Of a stretch of 64,000 bases of DNA, positions 16,206 to 64,000 are shown in pieces. The DNA comes from an uncultured Collinsella sp. GTDB lineage: Bacteria > Actinomycetota > Coriobacteriia > Coriobacteriales > Coriobacteriaceae. A program made the position numbers and the translations under genes. Each line of letters opens with the position of its first letter. Within the stretch, counting starts at the first letter, position 1. A model generated the notes under the pieces. It was not told where the DNA came from and ran no database searches. It saw only the letters and a program-made list of their open reading frames with translations. The stretch spans positions 8,536-72,535 of the forward strand of contig CABUGI010000003.1 in assembly GCA_902491055.1 (NCBI GenBank). The letters run 5' to 3'.

Positions 16206-16230
16206 CGACCGGTGGGACACGTACCCCCAA

Positions 16231-16854: not shown

Positions 16855-16921
16855 GGGTGGGTCCTTTCGAGGCGAAGACGGGTGGGCGAAGTAATGCGGT
16901 CCGGATGGACGTTCGGTTTGA

Positions 16922-18560: not shown

Positions 18561-18638
18561 GGACGTGCGGCATTCGGGTACAATGGCAGGAATCTTGTCA
18601 CCTACGGCGCTGTCGTGCGCTTTTTGAAAGGACGAAGT

Positions 18639-19334: not shown

Positions 19335-19472
19335 TGCCAAATTGCAGCGGTGCTTGCCGCGCACGCAATTCGATGCGAAAGGCGGTCCTTCGGGGCCGTC
19401 TTTTTTGTACACGGCGGGGTATTATGGATGGGAAAAGCCGATAGCGGCAGAGACCGAGAAAGGTGACCACTT

Positions 19473-41879: not shown

Positions 41880-42326
41880 TTACTCGGCGAGCTGCTTTAG
41901 CACATCGCAGGCAATCTCGACGGCATCGTCGATGCAACCGGGGCAGCTGCGGAGCGGACCCTTGTCCGATCCGATGCCCTTGAGCGTGCCGCAGACGGTC
42001 GTCGTGTTCTTCTCGCCAAAGCGCTTGGCGATTTCGCGCGACAGCTTGTAGGTCTGGCCCTTGGTCTTGGGGTTTTCCATGCCGTCGCTCATTACAAAGC
42101 CCATGATGGCCACGGCGCCCGAGATGGCGCCGCAGGTCTCGGTCATGCCGCCCATGCCGGCGCCAAAGCCCTCGGTGAGGGTAAAGGCGACCTGGGGGTC
42201 GAGCCCGACGGCGGGCGCGAGCGTGCAGGCGACGGCCTGGGCGCAGTTAAAGCCACGTGCGTGGTATTCGGCAGCCTGAGCCTGACAGGCGGTGATATCG
42301 AGCTGGGCCGTATCGATTTGCTTCAT
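41880..42326 (-). CDS. C_GCAxxG_C_C family redox-type protein
   Basis: GFNCAQAV, TCGAISGAV and a C-terminal SCPGCIDD. AAGGAGAC RBS precedes ATG 42326. Confidence 0.8.
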   Translation of the reverse strand: MKQIDTAQLDITACQAQAAEYHARGFNCAQAVACTLAPAVGLDPQVAFTLTEGFGAGMGGMTETCGAISGAVAIMGFVMSDGMENPKTKGQTYKLSREIAKRFGEKNTTTVCGTLKGIGSDKGPLRSCPGCIDDAVEIACDVLKQLAE

Positions 42327-42557
42327 CGTTGTCTCCTTGGTCACGGTGTACCCGCCTATGGTACCCGTGACGGGGCATGTAATCATCGAGAGCTTCATGT
42401 ATGCCTCGTTTTTATCAATCGAGCAAATGCCCAAGGCTTGAGATAAATACCCCTGATCAATTTGTCCCATAACCTACCTTGGGGATGGGTTGAGAGGGGT
42501 GCGGGGTAGCGGTATCGTGAACCGAATAAAACTAAAACCCAGGCAAGGGAGCTAGAT

Positions 42558-49044: not shown

Positions 49045-49254
49045 ACGTTCCTCTTTTAGGTTGCAACGCAAGCATTATAAAACGCGGTAAACGCGACGAG
49101 CCGGTGGGTTGGTTTCCATTCTGTTTCGCGGCCTGCAACCGACAGGTGTATTTGCGGGTACAGGCCGAGTCGCGGTCGTGCGTCGGGGGATTATACTGAG
49201 ACAAGCATAAAGAATTGGCGCCCCTGTTGTGCGCCGTGGCATTAAGAGGTGCAT

Positions 49255-50517
49255 ATGGCAGAGAAACTCATTCCACTGGAGGACGCACAGTCGATTGTCC
49301 TGTCGCACGTTGCTCCGACCGATCTCGTCGAGATTCCCGTGTGGCAGGCGGCTGGTTTTCCCTTGGCCGAGGACGCGGCGGCCGATATCGATATCTCGCC
49401 GTTTGCCAACAGCGCTATGGACGGATATGCCGTGCGCTCGGCGGACTTGGTGCAGGCATCTGGCGAGGCGCCGGTGACGCTCGACGTTATCGGACACGAG
49501 GCCGCGGGCCATGTGTTTGAGGGCGCAATCGGTGCGGGCGAGGCGGTCCGCATCATGACAGGCGCGCCGGTGCCCGAGGGTGCCGATGCCGTGGTGAAGT
49601 ACGAGATCGTCGATGTGCTCGACGGTGACGGCAACGAGGGCTCGCACGTTCGCTTTTCGGCGCCGGCCAAGGTAGGGGAGAACGTTCGCTCTGCTGCCGA
49701 GGAGGCCCATGCCGGCGATGTTGTGATGCACGCCGGCGAGGTCGTGGCTCCGGCGGGCGCGGGTCTGCTGGCGAGCGCCGGATACGCGAGCGTGAAGGTG
49801 CACGCTGCCCCGCGTGTGGGCATTATCTCGCTGGGCACGGAGCTGGTCGCGCCGGGTGAGCTGCCGGCGCGCGGGCAGATTCGCGATTCCAACTCGTCGG
49901 CGTTGATGGCCGAGGCACTCGATGCCGGCGCCGAGCCCGTATTCTACGGCATTGCGCCCGATGATGAGCAGGCGATCGCCGAGCTGGTGCATCGTGCCGT
50001 GCAGGAGTGCGACTTTGTCATTACGAGCGGTGGCGCCTCGGCGGGCGATTACGATTTCGTGACGGCGCTCGTCCGGCGCGAGGGCGAGGTACTGTTTGAC
50101 CGCATCTCGATGCGTCCGGGCAAGGCCATCACGTTTGGCTTGCTCGGGGGTAAGCCCTACCTAGGGCTTTCAGGCAATCCGGCTGCGGCGTATGTGGGCT
50201 TTGAGATGCTTGCCCGTCCGGCGATTCGCAAGATGCGCGGTTTTGCCGAGGTTGCGCGTCCCGTGCAGCAGGCGACGCTCACACACGGCGTGAAAAAGCG
50301 ACAGCATCGCCGCTTCTTCGATCGCGCCACGGTTTTGCGCGACCCCGAGACCGGTGAGTTGTTGGTGACCGAGGCTAAGACACAGAATTCGGCGCTGCTT
50401 GGAACTATGCAGCGTGCGAATTGCCTGTTGCGTATTGACGAAGGGCCGTGCGAGCTCAAGGCGGGAGATGCCGTGGACGTTGTTCGCGTCGACCTGCCCG
50501 AGGGAACGGCGCTATAG
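49255..50517 (+). CDS. moeA: Molybdopterin molybdotransferase MoeA
   Basis: MoeA-like length and sequence (SPFANSAMDGYAV, SGGASAGDYDF). Confidence 0.9.
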   Translation: MAEKLIPLEDAQSIVLSHVAPTDLVEIPVWQAAGFPLAEDAAADIDISPFANSAMDGYAVRSADLVQASGEAPVTLDVIGHEAAGHVFEGAIGAGEAVRIMTGAPVPEGADAVVKYEIVDVLDGDGNEGSHVRFSAPAKVGENVRSAAEEAHAGDVVMHAGEVVAPAGAGLLASAGYASVKVHAAPRVGIISLGTELVAPGELPARGQIRDSNSSALMAEALDAGAEPVFYGIAPDDEQAIAELVHRAVQECDFVITSGGASAGDYDFVTALVRREGEVLFDRISMRPGKAITFGLLGGKPYLGLSGNPAAAYVGFEMLARPAIRKMRGFAEVARPVQQATLTHGVKKRQHRRFFDRATVLRDPETGELLVTEAKTQNSALLGTMQRANCLLRIDEGPCELKAGDAVDVVRVDLPEGTAL

Positions 50518-50527
50518 GAGGAACGCT

Positions 50528-51007
50528 ATGGAGTTGAAGATTTCGATCGTGACGTGCTCGGACACACGCGATCTTTTGCAGGATGAGGCCGGAGCCGCAC
50601 TCGAGGAACTTATCGAGGCACAGGGCTGGACGGTCGCCTCACATGTGGTCGTGCGCGACGACGTCAGCGAGATCGGTGATGCCATTGTGGAAGCCGCCGA
50701 TGAGTGCCACGCCAATGTCGTGCTCACCTGCGGCGGCACGGGGCTTTCGATGCGCGACGTGACACCCGAGGCGACGCGCGCCGTCTGCGACCGCGATGTG
50801 CCGGGTATTGCAGAGGCGATTCGCGCGTACTCCATGACCAAGACGCGCCGCGCCATGCTCTCGCGCGCCGTGTGCATGCAACGAGGTCATACACTTGTCG
50901 TAAACTTTCCCGGTTCTACGAAGGCCGCCCGCGAAAGCTGGGAGGCCATAGCAGACCAGCTGGAGCACGCGGCTCAGATGACAGCGGGCGGCGGACATAC
51001 CAACTAA
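50528..51007 (+). CDS. mog: MogA/MoaB-family molybdenum cofactor biosynthesis protein
   Basis: TCGGTGLSMRDVTPEAT motif. AGGAGG RBS precedes ATG 50528. Confidence 0.85.
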   Translation: MELKISIVTCSDTRDLLQDEAGAALEELIEAQGWTVASHVVVRDDVSEIGDAIVEAADECHANVVLTCGGTGLSMRDVTPEATRAVCDRDVPGIAEAIRAYSMTKTRRAMLSRAVCMQRGHTLVVNFPGSTKAARESWEAIADQLEHAAQMTAGGGHTN

Positions 51008-51021
51008 GCGGTTTACCTGCG

Positions 51022-51058
51022 GCGGGGCGACCTTATCGGTCGCTCCGCTTTTGTTTTC
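51022..51058 (+). terminator. Intrinsic terminator after mog
   Basis: GCGGGGCGACC / GGTCGCTCCGC stem followed by TTTTGTTTT. Confidence 0.6.
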
Positions 51059-51106
51059 TGCCGAATCGACGCCAAGGTGCACGGTAACTTGAAACTATAT
51101 TCTCTG

Positions 51107-51139
51107 GCGAGAATAATTTCTCATTATCATTATTCGCGC
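51107..51139. promoter_or_regulatory. Inverted repeat adjacent to a TATAAT box upstream of modA (candidate operator)
   Basis: GCGAGAATAAT-N11-ATTATTCGCGC with one mismatch. TATAAT lies at 51145-51150. Confidence 0.3.
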
Positions 51140-51210
51140 GGAAGTATAATCTAGTAACAGAATAAAGCCTGCGGCGGGGTGCCCGGGCATAGCGTTCGAA
51201 AGGGTTGAAT

Positions 51211-52083
51211 ATGTTCGATATGGTTTCACGCCGCGGTTTTGTCTCGCTTTCTGCTGCCGCTGCCGCCGGCCTTGGCCTTGCCGGCTGCTCGGGCAACAAG
51301 ACGTCCGAGCCGGCCGGATCCGATGCCGGTTCTGCTAAGGCATCTTCCAAGAAGGTCGTCGAGCTGCAGGTCTTTGCTGCCAACTCGCTCGAGAAGGCTC
51401 TGCCCGAGGTTCAGGAGCTCTACACCGACCAGACCGGTACCACGTTTGCCGACACGCAGTTTAAGGCGTCTGGCGACCTTGTCGAGCAAATGCGCGCCGG
51501 TGCCGCCGTCGACGTGCTTGTCACGGCCTCCAAGGGCACCATGGATGACGCCGAGGCCGCCGAGCTCGTCGACGCCGACACGCGTGAGGACATGTTCGTC
51601 AACGACCTCGTGATCATTCGCGCCGAGGGCTCCGATACTAAGGTCGAGGCCATCGCCGACGTCGCGAATCTGGACGGTAAGATTGCCATCGGCGACGCCA
51701 AGACCGTCCCCGCCGGCAAGTACGCCAACCAGGCGCTGGCTTCCGTGGGCCTCTATACCGGTACCGAGGGCGACGACGGCGAGTGCGCGCCCGAGCTCGC
51801 CGACAAGGTAGCCCTGGCCGACAAGGTCGGCACCGCTGCGTCTTACGTCTCTACAGGCGACTGCGTGGCGGGTTTTGTCTACAGCTCCGACATCTTCCGC
51901 TACGACGGCATCGAGGAGGCCTTTGTGTGCCCCGAGGACTCGCACAAGCCCATCGTGTATCCCGGTGCCGTCGCCGAGAGCTCCGAGCACGCCGACGAGG
52001 CCAAGGCGTTCATCGACTTCTGCCTGACCAACAAGAAGGCCCAGAAGATTTGGGCCAAGTACGGCTTTGAGCTTTCCGAGTAG
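51211..52083 (+). CDS. modA: Molybdate ABC transporter substrate-binding lipoprotein ModA
   Basis: Signal SRRGFVSLSAAAAAGLGLAGCSG (twin-Arg-like plus lipobox); ModA-like body. Confidence 0.88.
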   Translation: MFDMVSRRGFVSLSAAAAAGLGLAGCSGNKTSEPAGSDAGSAKASSKKVVELQVFAANSLEKALPEVQELYTDQTGTTFADTQFKASGDLVEQMRAGAAVDVLVTASKGTMDDAEAAELVDADTREDMFVNDLVIIRAEGSDTKVEAIADVANLDGKIAIGDAKTVPAGKYANQALASVGLYTGTEGDDGECAPELADKVALADKVGTAASYVSTGDCVAGFVYSSDIFRYDGIEEAFVCPEDSHKPIVYPGAVAESSEHADEAKAFIDFCLTNKKAQKIWAKYGFELSE

Positions 52084-52151
52084 TGCGGCTTGGCGCGATA
52101 ATTCCATCGTTTTGTGTTTCACTCCGTCCTTGTATTCGCTTGGAGCTTTTC

Positions 52152-53594
52152 GTGCTTAATAGATTCCGCATGCTTGCCGCTTGTGCTTTGACCTTCGCGC
52201 TTTGCTGGGTGCCGGGATTTGCGTTTGCCGGGGACGCCGAGGACGGGGCCCAGGTTGCTGCGACCGCTCATGGGCTTTCCTATGGAATCGAGGGTTTTGA
52301 GCGGTTGGCGAAGGGGACCGCTCGTGCCATGGAGGGCCAGCCTGAGGGCTACCGGTTTCCCGTTGACGAGGATGTGGACCTTGTAGTGGCGCCTGCTGCC
52401 GATCGCGTTGTGGCGTGGATATCGCCCAAGGCGGTCGAGAAGTATGGATTGGATCCGCAGGACAACGAGTGCGTATCGGGTCTCAAGGCCCTCGTCTGTG
52501 ACCTCGACAGCGCAAACTGCATGGGAGGTGCGCGGCTGGGGGACGTGGATCTTCCTTGGTATGTCACGGCGGAAACAACGTTTGATGCCGGCGGGTATAC
52601 CTATGGCTTTGATGAGCGTGGTGCGGATGGGGACCGCTATGTGGTGATTGCATCAGCCTCGGGTGATGCCAAGGGCGGCGCGCGTTGGCTTGATAGCGCT
52701 CAAATGGTAGAGGCGTCGTCTGTCATATTGCGGGATGAGCAGGGGCCCTTGACCTCTCTGGTCTCCTTTTTGGGCGACATCGACTATCGCCCGTTTTGGG
52801 TGTCCATTAAAACGAGCGGCCTTGCCCTGGTGATCTCCCTTGCGCTGGGCCTGTTCGCCGCGTGGAAGACTATGGGTACCTCGAGTCGCATCAAGGGCCT
52901 GCTCGACTCGGTCTTTACCATCCCCATGGTGTTGCCGCCCACGGTCTGCGGCTTTTTGCTGCTTATGCTGTTTGGTCGCTCGACCGGGGTGGGCCAGTGG
53001 CTGATTGCGCACGGCGTCTCGATTGTCTTTACGTGGCCGGCGGCGGTGATCTCTGCCGTGGTGGTATCGTTCCCCCTGGTCTACCGTACGGCGCTCGGCG
53101 CCTTTGAGAGCCTCGACACGCAGATGCTTGACGCCGCGCGAACCCTGGGATGGTCCGAGCGTCGCATCTTTGCCAAGCTTATGATGCCGCTTGGGTGGCC
53201 TTCTATTGCCGCTGGTACGGTCCTCGCCTTTGCCCGCGCGATGGGAGAGTTTGGCTGCACGCTGTTCTTTGCGGGCAACTACGCCGGCATTACGCAGACC
53301 ATCCCCATTGCGATTTACTTTGAGTGGATGGGCGGCAACACCTCGGTGGCCCTCTTTTGGGTCGCCGTCGTGATCGTGTTCAGCTTCCTGGTCATCCTGT
53401 TCATCAACATGTACACCGCTCATTCGCAAAAGTATCGCGAGCGGGGCCTTTCCCGTGCGGAGCGCAAGCGGATCAAAGATCTTGCCGGACAGGGCGATTC
53501 GCTCGATCCGGCGGGCGGCGATGCCTTGCGTATCGATCGCGAGGCGCTGGCCGAGCTCATGCGCGATGATGCCGCTTTGCAGGGAGGTCGATAG
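52152..53594 (+). CDS. modB: Molybdate ABC permease ModB fused to a ~200-aa N-terminal extracytoplasmic domain of unknown type
   Basis: The C-terminal ~270 aa is ModB-like (FTIPMVLPPTVCGF, EAA-type LDAARTLGWSERRIF). The N-terminal part has a signal peptide and no recognisable family. Single open frame. Confidence 0.8.
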   Translation: MLNRFRMLAACALTFALCWVPGFAFAGDAEDGAQVAATAHGLSYGIEGFERLAKGTARAMEGQPEGYRFPVDEDVDLVVAPAADRVVAWISPKAVEKYGLDPQDNECVSGLKALVCDLDSANCMGGARLGDVDLPWYVTAETTFDAGGYTYGFDERGADGDRYVVIASASGDAKGGARWLDSAQMVEASSVILRDEQGPLTSLVSFLGDIDYRPFWVSIKTSGLALVISLALGLFAAWKTMGTSSRIKGLLDSVFTIPMVLPPTVCGFLLLMLFGRSTGVGQWLIAHGVSIVFTWPAAVISAVVVSFPLVYRTALGAFESLDTQMLDAARTLGWSERRIFAKLMMPLGWPSIAAGTVLAFARAMGEFGCTLFFAGNYAGITQTIPIAIYFEWMGGNTSVALFWVAVVIVFSFLVILFINMYTAHSQKYRERGLSRAERKRIKDLAGQGDSLDPAGGDALRIDREALAELMRDDAALQGGR

Positions 53595-53597
53595 GCC

Positions 53598-54668
53598 ATG
53601 TCGCTCGTTCTGGATATCAAAAAGCGCTATCCCGGGTTTATGCTCGACATGCAGCTTGAGGCCGGCGAGGATCGTGTGGCGCTGCTCGGTGCCTCGGGTT
53701 GTGGCAAGAGCTGTACGCTGCGCTGCATCGCCGGCGTGGAGACGCCCGACGAGGGCAAGATCGTCGTCAACGGCGTGACCTTTTTTGACTCGGCGACGGG
53801 CATCAACCTGTCGCCCCAGGAGCGAAAATGCGCCCTGCTGTTCCAAAACTATCAGCTGTTTCCCAACATGACGGTGGCCGATAACGTATGCGCCGGTGTA
53901 AAGGATGCGGGCGACGCCGCCGCGCGCAAAAAGCTCGCCGAGCGCTATCTGGGCATTTTCGGTCTGTCCGATTTTGCCGACCGCTATCCCGCGCGACTCT
54001 CGGGCGGTCAGCAACAACGTGTGGCGCTTGCCCGCATGGTGGCGGCGCATCCGGGCATTTTTATGTTCGACGAGCCCATGAGCGCACTCGATTCCTATCT
54101 TAAGAGCGCCCTCGAACAGAACATGCTCGACCTGTTCGATGTATGCAACCGCACCGTGCTCTACGTGAGCCACGACATCGACGAAGCGTGCCGCCTGTGC
54201 GGGCGCATCTGCGTGATGCACGACGGGCATGTTGAGGAGATCGGCTCCGTCGAGGACGTGGTCCGCCGTCCGCAGACGCTGGCGGCACTGCGCCTGACGG
54301 GCTGCAAGAACACAAGCCGGGCGCGCAAGATCGGGTCTCAGGAAGTTGAAGCCCTGGACTGGGGCATGACCTTTAACGTGGGCCATGAGGTTCCCGATAA
54401 CGTGACGTACCTCGGTATTCGTGCGAGCTACTTCCATGTTGACAATCGCGCGGAGCGCGGTCGCAACAGCTACGATTTGCACGTGGCCCGTGTGAGCGAT
54501 TCGCGCTTTGAGCGGCTGGTGCTGCTGGACGTGCCGCGTGCTGATGCGCCCACGCGTCTGCAGTGGAAGGTGAATAAGGTGAGTGTACCCGTGGAAGAGC
54601 TGCCGCAGGCGGGTGAGACTCTGCGCATGCATTTTGATGCAAGCAGGATCCATCTCGTTTGCCGATAA
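53598..54668 (+). CDS. modC: Molybdate ABC transporter ATP-binding protein ModC (with C-terminal TOBE-like domain)
   Basis: GASGCGKSCTL Walker A and [13 protein letters not shown] signature. Confidence 0.9.
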   Translation: MSLVLDIKKRYPGFMLDMQLEAGEDRVALLGASGCGKSCTLRCIAGVETPDEGKIVVNGVTFFDSATGINLSPQERKCALLFQNYQLFPNMTVADNVCAGVKDAGDAAARKKLAERYLGIFGLSDFADRYPARLSGGQQQRVALARMVAAHPGIFMFDEPMSALDSYLKSALEQNMLDLFDVCNRTVLYVSHDIDEACRLCGRICVMHDGHVEEIGSVEDVVRRPQTLAALRLTGCKNTSRARKIGSQEVEALDWGMTFNVGHEVPDNVTYLGIRASYFHVDNRAERGRNSYDLHVARVSDSRFERLVLLDVPRADAPTRLQWKVNKVSVPVEELPQAGETLRMHFDASRIHLVCR

Positions 54669-54680
54669 TGCGGGTGCGAT

Positions 54681-54716
54681 GCGGTCGAGGAGGTAGTCCT
54701 CGACCGCTTTGTTTTC
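54681..54716 (+). terminator. Intrinsic terminator after modC
   Basis: GCGGTCGAGGA / TCCTCGACCGC stem followed by TTTGTTTT. Confidence 0.65.
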
Positions 54717-54750
54717 ACTTCGCCGTTCGCCGATTTCTACATGACTAAAC

Positions 54751-54778
54751 CTTATCAGTCTGATAATTAATTATCAGA
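54751..54778. promoter_or_regulatory. Fur-box-like palindromic operator candidate
   Basis: Perfect 20-bp palindrome TCTGATAATTAATTATCAGA (54759-54778), preceded by a third half-site TTATCAG. GATAAT/ATTATC hexamers resemble Fur-family boxes. Confidence 0.4.
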
Positions 54779-54884
54779 CAGCGAGATGCTCACATCCCAA
54801 CGTTGTCGTACGCGTGTCGGCGGTGTTCGTCTTGACGACAACCGTTGATATAGTTACCTTCGACGAGAAAAGGAGGGCGCGCCG

Positions 54885-54953
54885 ATGCTGCAGAAGACAT
54901 ATTCGCGTCGCGTTGCCGCGCGCGCCCTGTATATGGCTCGGAGCCGCATATGA
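54885..54953 (+). promoter_or_regulatory. Candidate 22-codon leader ORF in the long 5' region of the reductase-selenium operon
   Basis: AAAGGAGGG lies 7 nt before the ATG. Encodes MLQKTYSRRVAARALYMARSRI. Confidence 0.2.
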
Positions 54954-55112
54954 GCAGGTATGTTCACGGCTCCGGGAGAGACGACGCACAACTAAATAAT
55001 CGACCGCAAAGCGGGTTCCCCAAAATTCCGGGTTTGAGCACGGCTGGGTTTTCGCCACCCACCGTGCAGAAATACCGTAGCTATTCATTTTTGGTTCGAG
55101 AGGGGAACCGTC

Positions 55113-56396
55113 ATGGCTGAAGAATTCGATTTCCATCCGATGTGGGAGAGCCTCGGCATGAATCTTGCCGACCACGACATGCTGCTGGGCGCCGTGGGCC
55201 AGATGTACGGCGATATGTTCCTGACGCAGAACAATCGCCCCAAGTCTACGTCCTACCTGGATTTTGTCGCCACCAACATCCACAGCGGCCGTATTAAGGA
55301 GATGCTCGACAAGAAGGAGGCCGGCGAGGCCACCAAGATCGTCGGTTCGTTCTGTGTGTACGTGCCCGAGGAGATCGTGCTTGCCTGCGATGGCATCCCC
55401 GTGGGCCTGTGCTCGGGTGCCGACTGGGCGACCGACAAGGTCGAGGAGCATCTGCCGCGCAACACCTGCCCGCTCATCAAGAGCTTTGCCGGCTTTAAGC
55501 TGGGCGAGGTTTGCCCCTACATTGAGTCGAGTGATCTGGTGGTGGGCGAGAACACCTGCGATGGTAAGAAGAAGGCCTACGAGTTCTTTGCCACGCAAAA
55601 GAACATGTACGTCATGGATATTCCCAACGTGCACGACGAGTCGACGCTCGTGACCTGGAAGGCCGAGGTCAAAAAGCTCGCCGCCAAGATCGAGGAAGAG
55701 TGTGGCGTCAAGATTACGCCCGAGCGCCTGAAGGCTGCCATCCACGCCGTCAACGAGAAGCGTCGCGCCCTGCAGCGTCTGGCTGCGACCCGCGCTGCCG
55801 ATCCGGCGCCCATCAGCGGTCTCGACAGCCTGCTGACCGTTCAGGCCGCCTTTATGGATGACACGCCGCGCCTGACCGGCGCCATCAACGAAATGGCGGC
55901 TGAGTGCGAGCAGCGCGTTGAGGCCGGCGAGGGTGTGGCGCCCAAGGGCACCAAGCGCATCCTGTACACCGGTACGCCCATGGCCGTGCCCAACTGGAAG
56001 CTGTTCAACCTCATCGAGAAGGCCGGCGGCGTCGTGGTGGGCGAGGAGTCCTGCACGGGCTCGCGCTACTACAAGGATCTGGTCGACGAGTCCGGCGAGA
56101 CGGTCGACGAGATGCTCGACGCCATCGCCGAGCGCTACTTTAAGATCAACTGCGCTGTCTTTACGCCCAATGACCAGCGTATGAAGGACATTGTCCAGAT
56201 GGCCAAGGACCTGCATGCCGACGGCATCGTCGACGTGGCCCTGCAGTTCTGCACACTCTACGAGATGGAGTCGTTTGCCGTGGAGAAGGCCGCCGAGGAG
56301 GCCGGCATTCCGTTTATGCACATCACGACCGACTACGCCGGCGAGGATGCAGGCCAACTGCAAACCAGGATCGAGGCTTTCTTGGAAACCATTTAG
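55113..56396 (+). CDS. Double-cubane-cluster / 2-hydroxyacyl-CoA dehydratase (HgdB/BcrB-like) family protein, paralog 1
   Basis: Conserved Cys blocks FCVYVPEE, NTCPLIKS, ENTCDGKKK, ESCTGSR and QFCTLY. An activase gene follows. Confidence 0.85.
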   Translation: MAEEFDFHPMWESLGMNLADHDMLLGAVGQMYGDMFLTQNNRPKSTSYLDFVATNIHSGRIKEMLDKKEAGEATKIVGSFCVYVPEEIVLACDGIPVGLCSGADWATDKVEEHLPRNTCPLIKSFAGFKLGEVCPYIESSDLVVGENTCDGKKKAYEFFATQKNMYVMDIPNVHDESTLVTWKAEVKKLAAKIEEECGVKITPERLKAAIHAVNEKRRALQRLAATRAADPAPISGLDSLLTVQAAFMDDTPRLTGAINEMAAECEQRVEAGEGVAPKGTKRILYTGTPMAVPNWKLFNLIEKAGGVVVGEESCTGSRYYKDLVDESGETVDEMLDAIAERYFKINCAVFTPNDQRMKDIVQMAKDLHADGIVDVALQFCTLYEMESFAVEKAAEEAGIPFMHITTDYAGEDAGQLQTRIEAFLETI

Positions 56397-56413
56397 GGCT
56401 ATCCGTCTCGGCG

Positions 56414-56512
56414 GCTTCCCCAGGCACCCGATCTTGCCGTTCTAACTGTCGCTTGCGTACCAAAGTACGCGGCGCTCCTCTTTCACGGCAACCTCGAGCA
56501 CCTGGGAAAGCC
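56414..56512 (+). repeat. ~100-nt intergenic repeat, copy A
   Basis: GCTTCCCCAGGCA...GTCGCTTGCGTACCAAAGTACGC...GCGCTCCTCTTT...GCACCTGGGAAAG. About 83% identical to copy B by hand alignment. Confidence 0.8.
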
Positions 56513-56550
56513 GTTTCCTTGGTTGGTTAAAAGGTTTGTTAAGGAGCTAT

Positions 56551-57714
56551 ATGTCGGAATATATTGAGCAGCCGTTGCCGTCCACGTTTGAGGAGTTCAA
56601 CGAGCAGCGCAAGGCGGCGTTTATTCGCGTCAAGGATTATAAGCAGGCGGGTAATCGCCTGGTCGGCTTTTTGTGCAGCTACACGCCGCTCGAGATTATC
56701 GATGCCGCGGGCGCTGCAAGTGTGGCCTTGTGCGGCACATCCGACGAGGTGATTCCCGAGGCCGAGAAGGTGCTGCCGGCAAACCTCTGCCCGCTCATCA
56801 AGTCGACCTACGGTTTTGCCTACTCGCAAAAGTGCCCGTTTACGTACTTTAGCGACATGATCATCGGCGAGACCACCTGCGACGGCAAGAAGAAGATGTA
56901 CGAGCTACTCAACGAGCTCAAGCGCACGCACATTCTGCATCTTCCGCAGGGTCGCGATCGCGCCTACGAGCGCGAAGGCTGGTACGAGGAGTGCCGCCTG
57001 CTCAAGGAGGAGCTCGAGGGCTTCTACGGCATCACGATTACCGACGATGACCTGCGTGCTGCCGTCCGTCGTCGCAACCGCTTGCGTGCGGCTCAGCTCA
57101 AGATGTTTGCGCTGCAGGCCAACCAGCCGGCGGCCATGAGCGGCGTCGACTTGATGAGCACTATGTTTGCCGGTACGTTCAGCTTTGATATCGAGGCCTA
57201 TACGCAGCAGCTGGAGCAAAAGGTCGCCAAGCTGCGCGAGGCCTACGACGCGGGCGAGCGCCCGGTTGCGGCGGACGCCAAGCGCATTCTGATCACCGGT
57301 TGCCCGGTGGGCGGTGTGATCAACAAGATCGGCCGCACCATCGAGTCCAACGGCGGCGTGGTCGTGTGCATGGACGACTGCTCGGGCGAGCGCACGGCGG
57401 CCATGATGATCGACCCGGAGGCTCCCGACATCTTGCGCGCCATCGCCGACCGCTACCTGGACATTAACTGCTCGGTCATGACGCCCAACGACGGTCGTAT
57501 GGAAAACGCGCTGGCCATGTGCGAGAAGTACCATGTCGATGGCGTGGTAGAGAGCGTGCTGCAGGCCTGCCACACCTTTAACGTTGAGAGCGCACGCATG
57601 CAGGAGGCCGTCGAGGGTGCGGATATTCCGTACATGAAGATCGAGACCGACTACAGCAACGGCGACATGGGCCAGATCGAGACGCGCATCGCCGCCTTTA
57701 TCGAGACGCTCTAG
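56551..57714 (+). CDS. Double-cubane-cluster / 2-hydroxyacyl-CoA dehydratase family protein, paralog 2
   Basis: [24 protein letters not shown] and QACHTF blocks. AAGGAG RBS precedes ATG 56551. Confidence 0.85.
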
Positions 57715-57813
57715 CTTCCCCAGGCATAGGATCTTGCTCCTCAAACCGTCGCTTGCGTACCCAAAGTACGCTGCGCTCCTCTTTTGGGGCAATCTCCGGC
57801 ACCTGAGAAACCT
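57714..57813 (+). repeat. ~100-nt intergenic repeat, copy B
   Basis: Starts at the last base of the paralog-2 stop codon. Same order of conserved blocks as copy A, including the GCGTAC-loop-GTACGC hairpin. Confidence 0.8.
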
Positions 57814-57869
57814 AGAGCTAAGGCGCCTGAACACGCCGTTACCTTTGATGTTTAGATTGGGAGAGAGCC

Positions 57870-58634
57870 ATGATAGGGATCGGGATCGATATCGGGTCTA
57901 CGGCGGCTAAGGCTGCTGTGGTCGATGGGGAGGGTTCGGTGGCGTGGACGTGCGTGCAGCCAACCGGGTTCTCCTCGGTCGATGCTTCCGAGCGGCTGCG
58001 CGAGGCACTGGCAGCGGCCGGCTATGACGTGACGGGCGACGATGTGCGCGTGATCGCGACCGGCTACGGTCGTGTCGCCGTGCCCTATGCACACAAGGTC
58101 GTGACCGAGATCTCCTGCCACGGCACCGGTGCCGTGTGCCTGTTTGGCGACCACGGCACCGTGATCGACGTGGGCGGTCAGGACACCAAGGTCATTCAGC
58201 TTAAAAGTGGCCGCGTGTCCAAGTTTGCCATGAACGACAAGTGCGCTGCCGGCACGGGGCGCTTTTTGGAGATCATGGCCGATCGCCTGGGCATTTCCCA
58301 GCAGCAGATGGCCGATCTGGCGCGTTCCGGCGAGCCCACCAAGATCAGCAGCATGTGCACGGTGTTTGCCGAAAGCGAGGTCATCAGCCTGATCGGTCGC
58401 GGTGAGCCGCGCGAGAACATTGCGCGTGGCGTGATCGACAGCGTGGTCTCGCGCGTGGCGACCATGGCCGGGCAGGCCGCGGGCGCCCCGTACTACCTGA
58501 CCGGTGGCCTGTGCGAGAACGCCTTCGTGGTGGAGCGGTTGGGCGAGCTGCTGGGGTCGCCGGTGACCACCTCGCCCCAGGCCCGCTTTGCAGGTGCCAT
58601 CGGCGCGGCGATTCGCGCCGCCGCCTTGGCCTAG
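57870..58634 (+). CDS. Acyl-CoA dehydratase activase / BcrA-BcrD-HgdC family ATPase
   Basis: GIDIGSTAAKAAVV, DVGGQDTKVIQL and NDKCAAGTGRFLE (cluster-bridging Cys) motifs. Confidence 0.9.
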   Translation: MIGIGIDIGSTAAKAAVVDGEGSVAWTCVQPTGFSSVDASERLREALAAAGYDVTGDDVRVIATGYGRVAVPYAHKVVTEISCHGTGAVCLFGDHGTVIDVGGQDTKVIQLKSGRVSKFAMNDKCAAGTGRFLEIMADRLGISQQQMADLARSGEPTKISSMCTVFAESEVISLIGRGEPRENIARGVIDSVVSRVATMAGQAAGAPYYLTGGLCENAFVVERLGELLGSPVTTSPQARFAGAIGAAIRAAALA

Positions 58635-58648
58635 GGGCGTACCGCGAC

Positions 58649-59866
58649 ATGCGCATCCTCAATATCTCGGCACAAAAACCAGATAGCACCGGCAGCGGCA
58701 CCTACCTTGCCGCGCTCGTGCGCGAGCAGATTGAGACGGGGCATTGCGCCGCCGTGCTTTGCGGCGCGGCGCCGGGTGATACCCAAGGCGAGCTGGACCG
58801 GCGTGCTGCCGTGTTTGTCGTACCGTTCGAGTCGCCCGAGCTGCCGTTTCCCATCTGCGGTATGTCCGATGTCATGCCCTATCCCTCCACACGCTATCGT
58901 GACCTGACGCCTTCGATGCTCAAGGCATTTGAGCGGGCATTTGCTGCTGCAATCGATCGGGCGGTGGCTGAGCTTCGGCCCGATCTGGTGATCTGCCATC
59001 ACCTGTATCTGGTGACCGCATTGGCGCGCGAGTGCGTCCGGGGCGTGCCGGTTGTTGCCGTGTGCCATTCGACCGACCTGCGCCAGCTGCGTTCGCATGC
59101 GCTCGAGCGCGATCGCATCGTAAGTGCGGTTCGTCGGCTCGATGCCGTCTTTGCGCTCCATGCTGAGCAGGCTGAGCAGATTGGCCTGGTGTGCGGCGTC
59201 GATGCCGATCGCATCCACGTGATTGGGACGGGCTACGACCATCACGTCTTCTGCCGCGACGCAAGCGTGGCGAGACAGCCGGGATCGCTTGTGTACGTGG
59301 GCAAGATTTGCTTTAAAAAGGGCGTCGAGTCGCTGGTTCGAGCCATGTCATTGCCGATTGACGATGGCGTCCGCCCATCTGGCTTGGTACTTGTGGGCGG
59401 CCGCGGGGACGATGCCGAGTACGCGCGTATCGAGCGCTTGGCCGCGGCCTCGGATGTGCCGGTGACGCTGGCGGGCCGCCTGGATAGCGATGGGCTCGTG
59501 CGTGCCTACCGCAGTTCCGACGTCTTTGTGCTGCCTTCGTTTTACGAGGGTCTGCCGCTCGTGACGATCGAGGCCCTCGCGTGCGGCTGCAATGTTGTGG
59601 CGACCGATTTGCCCGGCGTTCGTCCCTGGATGGAGGCGATGCTTCCCGGTGCTCCCGTGACGTGGGTGGCGCCGCCGCGTATGATGGATGTCGACACGCC
59701 CGTGGCGGCCGACCTTCCGTTGTTTGAGCGCGCACTGGCAGACGCTATCGCGCAGGCGCTTGCGGCTCTGCCTTCGACGTTCGAGCCGTCGGCGGTCTCT
59801 TGGGAAGCGTGCCTGGCGCGTATACTTAAAGTCGTTGATTTGTTGGAAGGGGGTTCGTATGGCTAA
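58649..59866 (+). CDS. GT-B fold glycosyltransferase (GT4-like); candidate SenB-like selenosugar synthase (inference)
   Basis: FYEGLPLVTIEALACG (EX7E region). The stop overlaps the selD start by 8 nt. Confidence 0.8.
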   Translation: MRILNISAQKPDSTGSGTYLAALVREQIETGHCAAVLCGAAPGDTQGELDRRAAVFVVPFESPELPFPICGMSDVMPYPSTRYRDLTPSMLKAFERAFAAAIDRAVAELRPDLVICHHLYLVTALARECVRGVPVVAVCHSTDLRQLRSHALERDRIVSAVRRLDAVFALHAEQAEQIGLVCGVDADRIHVIGTGYDHHVFCRDASVARQPGSLVYVGKICFKKGVESLVRAMSLPIDDGVRPSGLVLVGGRGDDAEYARIERLAAASDVPVTLAGRLDSDGLVRAYRSSDVFVLPSFYEGLPLVTIEALACGCNVVATDLPGVRPWMEAMLPGAPVTWVAPPRMMDVDTPVAADLPLFERALADAIAQALAALPSTFEPSAVSWEACLARILKVVDLLEGGSYG

Positions 59867-60908
59867 AGATACCGTGAGGCTCACGTCCATGACGGCCGCG
59901 AGCGGTTGAGCCGCTAAGTTGGCTCCCGGAGCCCTCGCCCAGGTCCTGGGCGACTTGCCCAATGTGCATAACGACAACCTGCTCGTGGGGTTCGATACCT
60001 CCGACGATGCGAGCGTCTTTCGCGTTGGCGATAACTTGGGCCTCGTGCAGTCCATCGACTTCTTCCCGCCGATGGTCGACGACCCGTTTCTGTTTGGCCA
60101 GATCGCCGCGGCCAACTCGCTGTCGGATATCTACGCCATGGGTGGGCGGCCGAGCCATGCCATGAACCTGCTGTGCATTCCCAGTTGCCTGGGCGTTGAG
60201 GTTGCCGGTCAGATTCTGGCGGGCGGCGCCGACAAGTGCGTCGAGGCGAGTTGCTCCATCGCGGGTGGCCACACCATCAACGACGATGAGCCCAAGTACG
60301 GCCTGTCCGTGAGCGGGTTTGTCGCGCTTGACCGTATGCTCGCCAACAGCGGCGCGCGCGTGGGCGATGCGTTGCTGCTGACCAAGGCGATCGGCTCGGG
60401 CATCATCACCACGGCCATTAAGGGCGAGCTCATCGAGCAGGACGAGGCTGGTCCGATGTTCGACTCGATGCGCACCCTCAACGAGGCCCCGATCCGTCTG
60501 GCCGAGGGGCTCGAGCTTCACGGCTGTACCGATATTACGGGCTTTGGCCTGATCGGGCATGCGTGCGAGATGGCCGAGGGCTCGGGCGTGCAAATCGAGC
60601 TCGCGTCGGGGGCGGTGCCGCTCTTTGACCAGGTGCTCGACATGGCGCGTCTGGGCATTATCCCCGCGGGCTCCTACCGCAACCAGGACTTCTTTGGCCC
60701 GCGCGTGGCTGCCGACGATGACCTGGAGCCGGGCATGCTGGATGCGCTGTACGATCCGCAGACCTCGGGCGGCCTACTCATCGCGGCGCCTGCTTCCGAT
60801 GTGGATGAGCTTGCGCGCCGCCTGGATGCCGAGGGGCGCGTTTCCGCCACAATCGGCCGCGTGTGCGAGCCGGTGCCGGGCGGTCCTGCCGTTCGTGTTG
60901 TCCGTTAA
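59859..60908 (+). CDS. selD: Selenide, water dikinase SelD, selenocysteine-containing (in-frame TGA at 59907-59909)
   Basis: From ATG 59859 the frame reads MAKDTVRLTSMTAASG-U-AAKLAPGALAQVL, matching the SelD (C/U)GxK active-site loop. The track ORF starts only at 59919. Confidence 0.9.
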
Positions 60909-60965
60909 CGATACGTTTATTGAACTATGCACCGTTCTAAAACGATTTATTCGAAAGGAAAAACT

Positions 60966-61592
60966 ATGTCTACCAAAATTGAAGTCAATGCCATGGGCGA
61001 TGCCTGCCCGCTGCCCGTCGTCAAGACGCTTAAGGCACTCAAACAGCTTGATGGCGAGGGTGCCGTGGTGACCTCGGTCGATAACGAGACCGCCGTCAAG
61101 AACATCTCCAAGATGGCGCAGGAGAAGGGCTGCACGGCCTCGGTCGAGAAGGTTTCTGACGCCGAGTGGCACGTGACCGTGGCGACCTCTGGCGCCGTTG
61201 CCGTGGCCGATCCTGAGCAGGATGGCGCTGCCTTTTGCGACGCCAGCGCCGGCAAGGGCAAACTCGTCATTTCCGTCTACACCGACTGCATGGGCCGCGG
61301 CGACGACGAGCTGGGCCACAAGCTCATGAAGGCATTCATCTTTGCCGTGACGCAGCAGGAGGAGCTGCCCTCGACCATGCTGTTCTACAACGGCGGCGCC
61401 AAGCTCACCGTCGAGGGCTCGCCGGTGCTCGATGACCTGAAGGGTCTGGCCGAGCAGGGCGTCGAGATTCTTACCTGCGGTACCTGCCTAGACCACTTTG
61501 GCATTAAAGACCAGCTTGCGGTGGGCGAGGTCACCAACATGTACGTGATCGTGGAGAAGATGGAGCAGGCCGTGCGCGTCGTGCGCCCGTAG
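60966..61592 (+). CDS. yedF: YedF-type selenium metabolism protein (TusA-like plus DsrE-like domains)
   Basis: AMGDACPLPVVKT CPxP motif, and a DsrE-like C-terminal half ending TCGTCLDHFG. Confidence 0.85.
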   Translation: MSTKIEVNAMGDACPLPVVKTLKALKQLDGEGAVVTSVDNETAVKNISKMAQEKGCTASVEKVSDAEWHVTVATSGAVAVADPEQDGAAFCDASAGKGKLVISVYTDCMGRGDDELGHKLMKAFIFAVTQQEELPSTMLFYNGGAKLTVEGSPVLDDLKGLAEQGVEILTCGTCLDHFGIKDQLAVGEVTNMYVIVEKMEQAVRVVRP

Positions 61593-61611
61593 CGTATTGG
61601 TTGGAGTTGCC

Positions 61612-61863
61612 ATGAGGGAGAAGCGCCCGGCGCTTGTCATCACGTTTCCCACCACGGCGGCCGCCATGGGTTGCGAGTCCCTGTGCATCGAGCGCGGCCT
61701 TCCCGGGCGCACGATTCCCGTGCCCGGGGAGGTCGCTGCCGGCTGCGGTTTGGCATGGAAGGCGTTGCCTGCCGATGAGGAACTGCTGCGCGGCGAGCTT
61801 GCCGCGGCGGGCGTTCCCACCGAGGGCTATACCGTGATCGATATGTGGGAGGTCGTGCGATGA
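61612..61863 (+). CDS. DUF3343-like small protein (putative Se/S carrier)
   Basis: About 83 aa. Occupies the typical position between yedF and a class-V desulfurase. ALVITFPTTAAAM...GCG pattern. Confidence 0.65.
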   Translation: MREKRPALVITFPTTAAAMGCESLCIERGLPGRTIPVPGEVAAGCGLAWKALPADEELLRGELAAAGVPTEGYTVIDMWEVVR

Positions 61864-62999
61864 TCTACCTGGATAACGCGGCGACGACCATGCACAAGCC
61901 GCAGACGGTCATCGATGCCGTGACGCAGGCGATGTGCTCGCTCGGCAATGCCGGGCGCGGCGCCACGTCGGGTGCCCTCGATGCCGCTCGTACGATTCAC
62001 GCTTGCCGTGCCAAGCTCGCGTGCCTTTTGGGTTGCCCGCGGGCGGACCATGTGTGCTTTACGCCCAACTCTACGGCGGCGCTCAACACCGCCATCAACG
62101 GGGTGGTGTGCCCCGGCGACCGCGTGGTCACGACGGTGCTTGAGCACAACTCGGTGCTACGGCCGCTCAACCGCCTGGCGGCAGAGCAGGGTGTGACCGT
62201 TGAGCATGCGGGCTGCGACGCGAACGGCGTGCTCGACTACGACGAGCTCGAGCAGCTGGTCACGCCGGGCACGCGTGCCGTGGTGGTGACGCACGCCTCC
62301 AATGTGACCGGCAACGCGGTCGACATTGCGCGCGTGGCTGTCATGGCCCATGCGGCCGGCGCGCTCGTGATCATCGATGCCTCGCAGTCTGCCGGCACGG
62401 CGCATATCGATATGAAGGCCATGGGGCTCGACGTGGTGTGCTTTACCGGCCACAAGGGGCTCATGGGTCCGCAGGGGACCGGCGGCCTGGCCGTGGCAGA
62501 GGGCATTGACGTGGCGCCGTGGGCCATGGGCGGCACGGGCGTGCACAGTTTCGATGCGTTGCAGCCGCTTGAGTGGCCCACGCGCCTTGAGGCGGGCACG
62601 CTCAACGGCCACGGTATCGCCGGCCTTTCCGCTGGTCTCGACTTTATCGAGGCCCAGGGTGGGGTGGAGACGATTGCTTCCCACGAGCGTGCGCTCGCTG
62701 ATCGCTTCCTTGCCGGTGTGCGCGAGATTCCGGGGATTAAGCTCTACGGTGCGTTTGACCAACCCGCGCGCTCGGCGATCGTGTCGCTCAACGTGGGCGA
62801 TATCGACTCTGCCGAGATCTCGGACGCGCTCATGCAAGGGTGGGGGATTGCGACGCGCCCCGGTGCCCATTGCGCCCCGCTCATGCACCGTGCGCTGGGG
62901 ACCGAGCGCCAGGGCGTCGTCCGCTTCTCGTTTGGGTATTTCAACACTACCGAAGAAGTCGACACGGCCATCGATGCTCTGTGCGATTTAGCCTGCTAA
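61860..62999 (+). CDS. Class-V aminotransferase: cysteine desulfurase / selenocysteine lyase family
   Basis: MIYLDNAATT start and FTGHKGLMGPQG PLP-lysine motif. ATGA overlap with the upstream gene. Confidence 0.85.
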   Translation: MIYLDNAATTMHKPQTVIDAVTQAMCSLGNAGRGATSGALDAARTIHACRAKLACLLGCPRADHVCFTPNSTAALNTAINGVVCPGDRVVTTVLEHNSVLRPLNRLAAEQGVTVEHAGCDANGVLDYDELEQLVTPGTRAVVVTHASNVTGNAVDIARVAVMAHAAGALVIIDASQSAGTAHIDMKAMGLDVVCFTGHKGLMGPQGTGGLAVAEGIDVAPWAMGGTGVHSFDALQPLEWPTRLEAGTLNGHGIAGLSAGLDFIEAQGGVETIASHERALADRFLAGVREIPGIKLYGAFDQPARSAIVSLNVGDIDSAEISDALMQGWGIATRPGAHCAPLMHRALGTERQGVVRFSFGYFNTTEEVDTAIDALCDLAC

Positions 63000-63021
63000 A
63001 GCTGCTAGACCGTTTATACTT

Positions 63022-63056
63022 GCGGGACGGGTGTTTTTGCCCGTCCCGTTTTTGTT
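63022..63056 (+). terminator. Intrinsic terminator closing the selenium operon
   Basis: GGGACGGG / CCCGTCCC stem followed by GTTTTTGTTT. Confidence 0.65.
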
Positions 63057-63076
63057 TCGACCCGAAAGGTGTGCAT

Positions 63077-64000
63077 ATGGCCTCATCCGCTCCGCGCGGT
63101 TTGCGCTCCGACCATGTCGTCACCGTCGGCATTGCGCTGTTTTCGATGCTCTTTGGCGCCGGTAACCTCATCATTCCGCCGTTGCTGGCACTTCAGGCCG
63201 GCACGGCCACGCCGCTTGCCATGATTGGCTTTTTGATTGCCGCCATCGGCCTGCCCGTCATGGGCTTTATCGCCGTCGCGCTCGCCGGCACGGCCCGCGA
63301 GCTGGCTGGGCGCGTGCATCCTAAGTTTGGCGAATTCTTCGTTGCGGCGGTGTATCTGGCCATCGGCCCGTGCCTGGCCATTCCGCGCACAAGCTCTACG
63401 GCCTTCGAGATGCTGGTGCCGCTACTGCCCGAGGGCGTTTCGCTCGGCACGGCTCGCCTGGTGTTTGCCGTTGGCTTCTTTGTCGTCGCGTTTGCGCTCA
63501 CGCTGCGTCCGGGCGTTATCACGCGCGTGCTCGGGCGCATTACGGGCCCCGCGCTCATTGCGCTCATCGTGCTGGTCGTGGGTGCTGCCGTGATCTCGCC
63601 GCTGGGACCGGCTGCCGCGCCGCAGACTCCCTACAGTGCCGGTGCTACCGTGCAGGGCTTTTTGACCGGTTATCAGACCATGGATCTGCTTGCGTCGCTC
63701 GCCTTCGGCATCATCATCGCCGAGACCATCCACGAGTTGGGTGTTACCGATGACAAGCGCGTGGCCTTTGAGATTTCGCGTTCCGGCGTGATCGCCGGCG
63801 TGCTCATGGCCATCATCTACTGTGGCCTGGCGCTTGCCGGAATGCAACTCGGCGCGGTTATGCCCGATGCCACCAACGGCGCTGCCATCCTCGCTCGTTC
63901 GGCCTCCATGCATTTTGGGCTTGCTGGCACGGTCGTGGTCTTCGCGATCTTTTTCCTCGCCTGCATGAACGTGTGCATCGGTCTTATTAGCTGCTGCTCG
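63077..64000 (+). CDS. brnQ: Branched-chain amino acid transport system II carrier BrnQ (3' partial)
   Basis: My own translation from ATG 63077 gives FSMLFGAGNLIIPP and GYQTMDLLASLAFG. The frame is open to the window edge and is absent from the ORF track. Confidence 0.88.
   Translation, partial: MASSAPRGLRSDHVVTVGIALFSMLFGAGNLIIPPLLALQAGTATPLAMIGFLIAAIGLPVMGFIAVALAGTARELAGRVHPKFGEFFVAAVYLAIGPCLAIPRTSSTAFEMLVPLLPEGVSLGTARLVFAVGFFVVAFALTLRPGVITRVLGRITGPALIALIVLVVGAAVISPLGPAAAPQTPYSAGATVQGFLTGYQTMDLLASLAFGIIIAETIHELGVTDDKRVAFEISRSGVIAGVLMAIIYCGLALAGMQLGAVMPDATNGAAILARSASMHFGLAGTVVVFAIFFLACMNVCIGLISCCS

Follow-up and report, generated by a model that had tools for sequence, protein, structure and literature searches.

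We analysed a 64,000-nucleotide (nt) stretch of DNA from an uncultured Collinsella sp. (contig CABUGI010000003.1; this whole stretch is called the window below). In it, eight genes on the plus strand between positions 55113 and 62999 combine a selenium module with two double-cubane cluster proteins (DCCPs), their candidate activase and a glycosyltransferase (GT). Open reading frame (ORF) listing and family scans gave the gene order DCCP1, DCCP2, activase, GT4, selD, yedF, DUF3343 and a class-V desulfurase gene (csd), bracketed by strong terminator-like hairpins. The same eight co-directional genes had been named in a first-pass annotation made from the sequence alone, and both the listing and the scans agree with it. 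The features of the locus are given here with their positions in the window and their scores.

54681-54707, plus strand: terminator-like hairpin at the upstream boundary, with an 11-pair stem, 8 GC pairs and a T-run; it lies 3' of modC, which ends at 54668.
55113-56396, plus strand: DCCP1, a long class I-type double-cubane [8Fe-9S] cluster protein of 427 aa (NF040772, 493 bits).
56536-57714, plus strand: DCCP2, a short YjiM-like double-cubane protein of 392 aa, with a probable ATG start at 56551 (NF040772, 495 bits).
57870-58634, plus strand: ATP-dependent electron-transfer activase ("archerase") of the BcrAD/BadFG/HgdC family (PF01869, 195 bits; TIGR00241, 234 bits).
58649-59866, plus strand: GT4-family glycosyltransferase (GT-B fold) of an unnamed subfamily (Pfam GT4/GT1 domains).
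59859-60908, plus strand: selD, selenide,water dikinase with selenocysteine (Sec) at the catalytic Cys position (TIGR00476, 357 bits).
60927-61592, plus strand: yedF, with TusA-like and DsrE-like domains and an alternative ATG start at 60966 (TIGR03527, 214 bits; PF01206 and PF02635).
61597-61863, plus strand: DUF3343, a putative selenium/sulfur carrier (PF11823, 65.7 bits).
61860-62999, plus strand: csd, a class-V pyridoxal phosphate-dependent cysteine desulfurase, selenocysteine lyase-like and SclA-related (TIGR01977, 414 bits, cutoff 377).
63022-63049, plus strand: terminator-like hairpin at the downstream boundary, with a 12-pair stem, 8 GC pairs and a T-run; it is also present in the Collinsella loci L022 and L035.

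The two boundary hairpins are the only strong terminator-like hairpins on the plus strand, as the first-pass annotation had stated; a further, weak one lies at the selD/yedF junction (60894-60915). The coordinates also bear out the two overlaps that it had reported, 8 nt between the GT stop and the selD start, and ATGA between the DUF3343 stop and the csd start. The GT start follows the activase stop after 14 nt. The first-pass description of the gaps as short is correct for most junctions, but not for those between DCCP1 and DCCP2 (139 nt) and between DCCP2 and the activase (155 nt). No riboswitch and no other RNA family was found by an Rfam scan of positions 54500-64000.

A search of genome contigs with the GT gene yielded 80 loci, all from Collinsella and 96-98% identical. 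Each of the 53 Collinsella loci with a length of 15.9 kb or more has all eight genes. The cluster thus behaves as a unit, as claimed earlier, and the eight-gene arrangement is not due to chance. As a gauge of deep conservation these nearly identical loci are uninformative, and a metagenome scan seeded with a distant member of the GT family was used instead. Between DCCP1 and DCCP2, 22 of 64 related Collinsella loci have a 5.5-kb operon of five genes that encodes an ATP-binding cassette (ABC) importer of the Opp/Nik/GsiB type; the window strain is without it. The inserted operon (2654-7931 in L007, corresponding to the gap 56397-56535 of the window) encodes a family-5 binding protein, two permeases and two ATPases.

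Genes five to eight are, judging from family membership, the usual module by which a Sec-using organism activates and traffics selenium. SelD scores 357 bits against the TIGR00476 cutoff of 125, and its N-terminal loop has Sec followed by the conserved Lys. The in-frame TGA is codon 17 (59907-59909), in the context SG-U-AAK (codons 15-20), and it is the sole in-frame stop of the gene. GC-rich hairpins are found 3' of this UGA (59907-59960). Their fold z-score is only -1.66, and the Sec insertion sequence is therefore a candidate and not claimed. YedF scores well above its cutoff (214 bits against 110 for TIGR03527) and has the TusA-like Cys in DACPLP. The desulfurase passes the broader model TIGR01977 but falls below the cutoff of the SclA model NF040779 (349 bits against 525); it is thus SclA-related, and its specificity for Sec is putative.

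The selA and selB genes are absent from the window by tblastn, and no tRNA was found in it. Three syntenic Collinsella loci, L022, L053 and L079, have selA-selB about 2.8 kb downstream of csd. Synteny between the window and L022 continues on this side of csd; in L022, genes for a BrnQ-type branched-chain amino acid transporter and an FNT formate/nitrite channel are followed by selA and selB; positions 63100-64000 of the window, after the csd terminator, are occupied by the BrnQ-type carrier (the matching region of L022 is 14366-20584). At the spacing of L022, selA-selB would fall just past the end of the window; the Sec codon of selD itself calls for Sec insertion in this organism. Only 3 of 35 full-length Collinsella loci have selA within 10 kb, and therefore the position of selAB varies between strains. 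Family scans of 24 ORFs of the window, not an exhaustive search, gave no senA, selU or yqeB/C. The earlier claim that the window has no other selenium genes is thus upheld by tblastn for selA and selB, and for the remaining genes within the reach of these scans.

The first-pass annotation also held that none of the known selenium traits explains the cluster on its own. This is too strong, given the Sec-bearing SelD, the nearby selA-selB in three loci and, in other genera, the location of the GT gene inside selD-selA-selB clusters. The selD-yedF-DUF3343-csd part is explained by the Sec trait, and the claim holds for the steps of the DCCPs with their activase and of the GT. Genes five to eight are exactly the set of the Sec-trait support module (Lin et al. 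2015, PMC5322559), down to a SelD with Sec and adjoining selA-selB in relatives. What the Collinsella unit adds to this module is two DCCPs, an activase and a GT4 enzyme.

Both DCCPs belong to the double-cubane-cluster anaerobic reductases as defined by NF040772 (cutoff 350 bits), and the partner activase expected in such a system is encoded at 57870-58634. The motif of seven cysteines, CX19CX18-19CX29CX166-170CX32-34CX32C, was searched with slightly widened spacings and matched once in each protein, at residues 81-380 of DCCP1 and 47-345 of DCCP2. The two are paralogues with 38% identity. The match of DCCP1 to the solved DCCP of Carboxydothermus hydrogenoformans (6ENO/7YYL; 427 bits) spans its full length, and DCCP2 aligns with 6ENO at 271 bits and is missing about 30 N-terminal residues. 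DCCP1 is by this match an orthologue, along its whole length, of the class I DCCP that reduces small molecules; cluster binding and reductase activity are predicted for it. The Collinsella system shares with DCCP/DCCP-R of C. hydrogenoformans the NF040772 score class, the cysteine motif and the adjacent activase. It differs from that system and from those of Haft in pairing a long (class I) with a short (class II-like) protein. The narrow channels of class I DCCPs are suited to small molecules, and the C. hydrogenoformans protein (DCCP_Ch) together with its activase reduces small molecules. The physiological substrate of DCCPs has been unknown since their first description.

The first-pass annotation was aware of no described connection of double-cubane enzymes with selenium. 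This is out of date. Haft (2022/2023), who built NF040772, found by phylogenetic profiling that 955 of 970 strong DCCP hits were in SelD-positive assemblies, and proposed that DCCPs process selenium compounds or that selenium sits in their cluster; this work appeared later in J Bacteriol, as cited by the mlp-cluster preprint, which depicts the genes of a DCCP and its reductase as putatively selenium-related. Already in 2015 a dehydratase-type subunit, an activase and a glycosyltransferase were listed, undiscussed, among the STRING partners of YedE/YedF/DUF3343 in Slackia heliotrinireducens (PMC5322559). The locus is distinct from the selenocysteine-assisted organometallic (SAO) locus of Haft, to which members of NF040772 are reported to be adjacent. 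None of the eight proteins of the window matches any Sao model, and the ABC genes of Thermophilibacter immobilis, described below, score well below the cutoffs (197 bits against 360 for SaoA, 72 against 295 for SaoP). The link in Collinsella is instead operonic, with selD, yedF, DUF3343 and csd, and with yedE in T. immobilis.

DCCP or activase genes are found within 10 kb of the GT or selenium genes in 7 of 20 high-GC lineages of the metagenome scan (defined below). The adjacency of reductase and selenium genes suggested earlier is thus conserved across Coriobacteriia families, with the gene order shuffled. One example is T. immobilis, where the orthologue of DCCP1 has 82% identity. The order there is a sclA-like gene, yedE (TIGR04112, 500 bits), tusA, DUF3343, DCCP1, DCCP2, an SsuA/Tau-type ABC importer, the activase, a gene for a C_GCAxxG (seleno)protein and a tehA-like gene. 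This locus (L167) ends about 2.7 kb upstream of another (L083), which holds grd genes and selD-selA-selB-yedF-DUF3343-GT-csd.

One explanation of this arrangement is that the DCCPs are clients of selenium metabolism. They would have selenium in their own cofactor, for instance in place of a bridging sulfide, or belong to a pathway in which some steps require selenoenzymes, and would lie beside selD as fdh and grd genes do. Co-occurrence at the level of 955 out of 970 led Haft to name this as a formal possibility. Genes for selenoprotein clients do cluster with sel genes: a split fdhA lies beside selD in L084, and in T. immobilis the DCCP module is separated from selD by grd genes. A DCCP of Thermoleophilia has only its activase nearby and no selenium neighbours, as is often the case for clients. 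On the other hand, neither DCCP gene contains an in-frame UGA, and DCCP_Ch with its activase acts on small molecules. The solved DCCP was reportedly produced in a heterologous host, and it carries an [8Fe-9S] cluster. Moreover, the DCCP pair of T. immobilis is placed between putative selenium importer and carrier genes (yedE-tusA-DUF3343) and an ABC importer, which is a better fit to the processing of a substrate. We consider the client explanation unlikely, while giving it the most weight among the alternatives; a separate organoselenium metabolite comes second and passenger genes last.

Several observations were made around these loci. The two loci of T. immobilis together (CP063767, about 1.616-1.657 Mb) form a selenium super-island of about 40 kb. 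It starts with genes of the purine-degradation type (OTCase, carbamate kinase, amidohydrolase), which are followed by the block from the sclA-like to the tehA-like gene and by osmC. The middle part has a glycine reductase-family gene (Gly_reductase domain), likely more grd genes, a thioredoxin reductase-like gene and a thioredoxin gene. At the end are selD-selA-selB-yedF-DUF3343-GT-csd, a second ABC importer and yqeC. The C_GCAxxG member directly after the activase (14243-14758 in L167) is of the same family as a C_GCAxxG_C_C "(seleno)protein" ORF of the window, located on the minus strand at 41880-42470, 12.6 kb upstream of the operon (TIGR01909, 69 bits, cutoff 47). In the window, moeA and modABC are situated directly upstream of the selenium operon (49249-54668). 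The permease domain of ModB (52083-53594, 503 aa) covers residues 253-450 and is preceded by about 230 aa of unexplained N-terminal extension.

The GT was suggested earlier to be SenB-like, that is, a selenosugar synthase. Comparison of 58649-59866 with SenB and GT4 enzymes, by profile hidden Markov models (HMMs) and by structure, places it on the GT4 side. On the SenB model TIGR04348 the GT scores 19.7 bits (cutoff 300), and the match is confined to residues 215-324, in the nucleotide-binding half; other members of the family give 35-47 bits. In an NCBIfam scan of the GT and distant family members no model reaches its cutoff and none names the subfamily; MshA and BshA models score 44 bits (cutoff 462) and 33 bits (cutoff 274) on the GT. 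When the family is aligned, the EX7E motif of retaining GT4 enzymes is seen together with invariant N-domain motifs specific to the family, AQKPDSTGSG, GMSDxMPY..RYRD, CHHLYL and HSTDLRQ; R82, R145, H117, H118 and H140 are among the invariant residues. Sequence matches in the PDB are GT4 enzymes such as sucrose-phosphate synthase (SPS), GlgM, MshA, PimB' and BshA. An AlphaFold (AF2) model built from 38 family members has a mean confidence (pLDDT) of 92.7, and its Foldseek neighbours are the retaining GT4 enzymes MshA, GlgM, BshA and SPS, many with soluble anionic acceptors (E-values 1e-19 to 1e-15, TM-scores 0.43-0.73, mostly 0.6-0.7). No SenB entry is among the best 50 Foldseek matches. SenB, an inverting enzyme, requires K158 and the EGGAHV motif (PMC10891094); the comparison drew on the published description of these features. 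Thus the HMM score, the EX7E motif and the fold neighbours rule out a SenB-type selenosugar synthase.

What the GT has in common with the SenB/SenC system is a GT-B gene overlapping selD, and hence a nucleoside diphosphate sugar-dependent step beside selenophosphate synthesis. It is longer than SenB (about 405 aa against about 310, the latter being the length of the TIGR04348 profile) and carries the retaining-type motif, whereas SenB is inverting. Unlike in the SenABC pathway, no senA was found beside it, and its host probably has the Sec trait. No gene similar to egtB or senA occurs in any of the neighbourhoods inspected, the window having been scanned for it non-exhaustively. The best sequence and structure matches, MshA (mycothiol), BshA (bacillithiol), GlgM and SPS, share with the GT the EX7E motif and a G-rich N-terminal loop. 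However, the identity is only 15-23% and the N-domain motifs are the family's own. In contrast to the mycothiol and bacillithiol pathways, no thiol-pathway deacetylase or ligase genes are linked to the GT.

The GT family is large: at E<=1e-30 it comprises 657 clusters (50% identity). Among its distant members there are natural fusions with DUF6873 (twice), a GFO/IDH/MocA oxidoreductase and a gamma-glutamyl-cyclotransferase-like (GGACT) domain (P0191, P0199, P0261, P0223). As a clue to the acceptor these fusions are mutually inconsistent and give no clear candidate; no mention of DUF6873 was found in the literature. Proteins in which activase and GT are joined (P0001/2/5/8/9/13) were considered as Rosetta-stone evidence, and the whole set was discarded: at the 3' end of the activase gene the reading of P0005 and P0002 runs on into the GT frame, and P0013 shows a deletion. 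Such joined public gene calls (602-669 aa, for instance P0005, P0002 and P0013) are frameshift or deletion artefacts at 58511-58648.

Outside Collinsella, GT homologues with 51-60% identity were found in Thermophilibacter, Olsenella, Arabiibacter and Slackia. In Arabiibacter, selB-selA are divergent from GT-csd-yedF-DUF3343, with selD next door, and in Slackia faecicanis selB-selA are likewise divergent from the GT gene. The order in T. immobilis is selD-selA-selB-yedF-DUF3343-GT-csd. A metagenome-assembled genome of Atopobiaceae has DCCP, activase and selD-GT-selA-selB-yedF-DUF3343-csd. A metagenomic Eggerthellaceae-like contig has DCCP-activase-DUF3343-DUF3343-GT-csd-yedF-DUF3343, followed by selD and a Sec-split fdhA.

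The metagenome scan seeded with the distant GT member added 80 further loci, and homologues of the selenium proteins were sought by tblastn. When the GTs were clustered at 80% identity, 33 lineages resulted, 20 high-GC and 13 low-GC (Lachnospiraceae-type). A GT was considered selenium-linked if at least two of selD, selA, selB, yedF, DUF3343 and csd were found within 10 kb. By this definition 16 of the 20 high-GC lineages are linked, including 11 of the 12 that have at least 5 kb on both flanks, and none of the 13 low-GC lineages. The immediate partner of the GT gene varies (selD, csd, DUF3343, selA, selB or yedF), with gaps from -5 to a few hundred nt, and in most linked lineages some selenium gene lies within a few hundred nt. 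By tblastn coordinates, the GT gene and DUF3343 are directly adjoining in L087 (gap -1 nt), and the distance between the GT gene and csd is 26-63 nt. Adjacency of the GT to selenium genes in relatives, which the first-pass annotation had itself proposed as a test, is thus conserved, and the linkage has been kept through changes of order, strand and partner across three families of Coriobacteriia. In a neighbour-joining tree the mostly selenium-linked clade is apart from the low-GC clade, to which Faecalimonas umbilicata and Luxibacter massiliensis belong. In three low-GC lineages (L139, L156 and L161, at about 11.3-12.1 kb) the gene after the GT encodes a small PHP-domain phosphoesterase. Upstream of the GT in two low-GC lineages (L120 and L156) there is a putative split ChrA-like pair (chromate/oxyanion transporter), recognised by N-terminal sequence only. 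We found no discussion in the literature of a GT4 subfamily embedded in sel clusters of Coriobacteriia. In Kayrouz et al., who found SenB by ranking genes that overlap selD, we found no mention of the GT4 family, and in the supplement searched no table of selD overlaps that lists a GT4 enzyme. The link between GT4 and selenium appears to be new; that between the reductase and selenium was partly anticipated.

The first-pass annotation had interpreted the cluster as a candidate pathway to an undescribed organoselenium small molecule. On such a reading a SenB-like GT would form a C-Se bond from selenophosphate and a nucleotide sugar, giving a selenosugar, and the DCCPs would tailor or recycle the product. 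The overlap of the GT stop with the selD start, the very criterion that uncovered SenB, is consistent with this, as is the conserved adjacency to selenium genes. The nearest structural relatives of the GT take small anionic or phosphorylated acceptors (inositol 1-phosphate, glucose 1-phosphate, fructose 6-phosphate, malate), and selenophosphate is such a molecule; the PHP phosphoesterase that follows the GT in Lachnospiraceae could perform the Se-P hydrolysis that SenB performs itself. However, homology to SenB is limited to the generic nucleotide-binding half of the GT-B fold, and the retaining-type EX7E motif is at odds with an inverting enzyme. Neither a senA/egtB-like gene nor another gene utilising a C-Se compound is linked in any locus inspected. 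The location of the GT gene inside selA/selB clusters suggests service to the Sec trait rather than to a separate product, and outside Coriobacteriia the family is not linked to selenium. We regard a separate organoselenium metabolite as improbable. SenB-like chemistry that has arisen in this GT by convergence is possible.

It is also conceivable that the GT, the DCCPs or both are passengers, that is, ordinary metabolic genes (a synthase of a compatible solute or a thiol-type glycoside; a reductase of an unrelated substrate) residing in a conserved sel island. The GT family is widespread and is unlinked in Lachnospiraceae and in one Eggerthellaceae-like clade, its fusions with GFO/IDH/MocA, GGACT and DUF6873 domains point to sugar or amino acid chemistry, and separate promoters may lie in the gaps flanking DCCP2. 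But neutral synteny would not be expected to outlast reshuffling across three families, and the start and stop codons are coupled, in the GT/selD overlap as well as in the close contacts of the GT gene with DUF3343 in L087 and with csd. The passenger explanation is the least probable of those considered here, and we give it little credence.

The reading that we favour, and to which we assign about an even chance, is that an operon for selenium acquisition and activation, common to Coriobacteriia, is present here in its Collinsella form. It would serve Sec insertion and selenium-dependent molybdenum hydroxylases, with the DCCP and GT steps accessory to these. C. aerofaciens ATCC 25986 is among the strains reported to have the cluster for uric acid (2,8-dioxopurine), all of which had YqeBC and SelD. 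By homology, SelD, itself a selenoprotein, makes selenophosphate; the SclA-like desulfurase would mobilise selenium from selenocysteine; YedF and DUF3343 are the usual selenium trafficking proteins. DCCP1 and DCCP2 with the ATP-hydrolysing activase would form a very low-potential reductase acting on small selenium species. Candidate substrates are Se(0) or polyselenide, a carrier-bound perselenide, and an imported organo- or oxy-selenium compound, the product being selenide for SelD. The GT4 enzyme would take part in the same selenium process as a soluble retaining-type transferase similar to MshA, BshA and GlgM. We infer this common role of the DCCPs, the activase and the GT because their linkage is conserved and yet reshuffled; the importer genes that recur inside or beside the DCCP module suggest it too. 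The structural relatives of the GT and its PHP neighbour in Lachnospiraceae suggest, by analogy, that the acceptor is small and anionic, possibly phosphorylated. The most economical guess is that the GT glycosylates a selenium-bearing or selenium-carrying small molecule, without being a homologue of SenB. The operon does not look like a stand-alone natural-product pathway.

Several points weigh against this acquisition and activation role. The tie of both the DCCPs and the GT to selenium is so far a genomic one. Co-transcription of all eight genes is a prediction, in view of the two gaps of 139 and 155 nt. A DCCP and activase of Thermoleophilia are without selenium neighbours. The GT family of Lachnospiraceae lies beside a PHP phosphoesterase, with none of its 13 lineages linked to selenium, and therefore the chemistry of the GT need not involve selenium; a literature search on selenium traits of these Lachnospiraceae hosts yielded nothing of use. 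In one abundant high-GC clade (L146-148 and relatives) the GT is in a housekeeping context and the linkage has been lost. As for the reduction step, thiols reduce perselenides easily, so that an ATP-driven reductase is not obviously needed there. The thermodynamic case for such a reductase draws on a very negative potential of the Se(0)/HSe- couple, which a literature search could not confirm.

A bolder version of the same reading would have two new steps of selenium metabolism in this operon. The DCCP1/DCCP2-activase system would be a physiological ATP-driven reductase converting refractory selenium species to selenide for SelD. The GT4 enzyme would be a second Se-glycosyltransferase, of independent evolutionary origin and retaining type and unrelated to SenB; its product, a selenosugar or glycosyl-selenophosphate, would serve gut Coriobacteriia in the buffering or delivery of selenium. 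We consider it a long shot that both steps are as described. If true, it would provide the first natural substrate for double-cubane proteins.

The locus is thus a real and conserved feature, and the interpretation given to it by the first-pass annotation is partly supported. Two open questions meet in one operon, the physiological substrate of DCCPs and the way in which anaerobes make selenide and hand it to SelD, and the host is of a type that is abundant in the human gut and culturable. An unnamed GT4 subfamily is nominated as a new player in bacterial selenium handling. The supply of selenium to gut Coriobacteriia bears on formate metabolism and on selenium-dependent purine degradation, the latter shown in Clostridium sporogenes. 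The operon points to unknown steps in making selenium usable by anaerobes rather than to a natural product similar to selenoneine.

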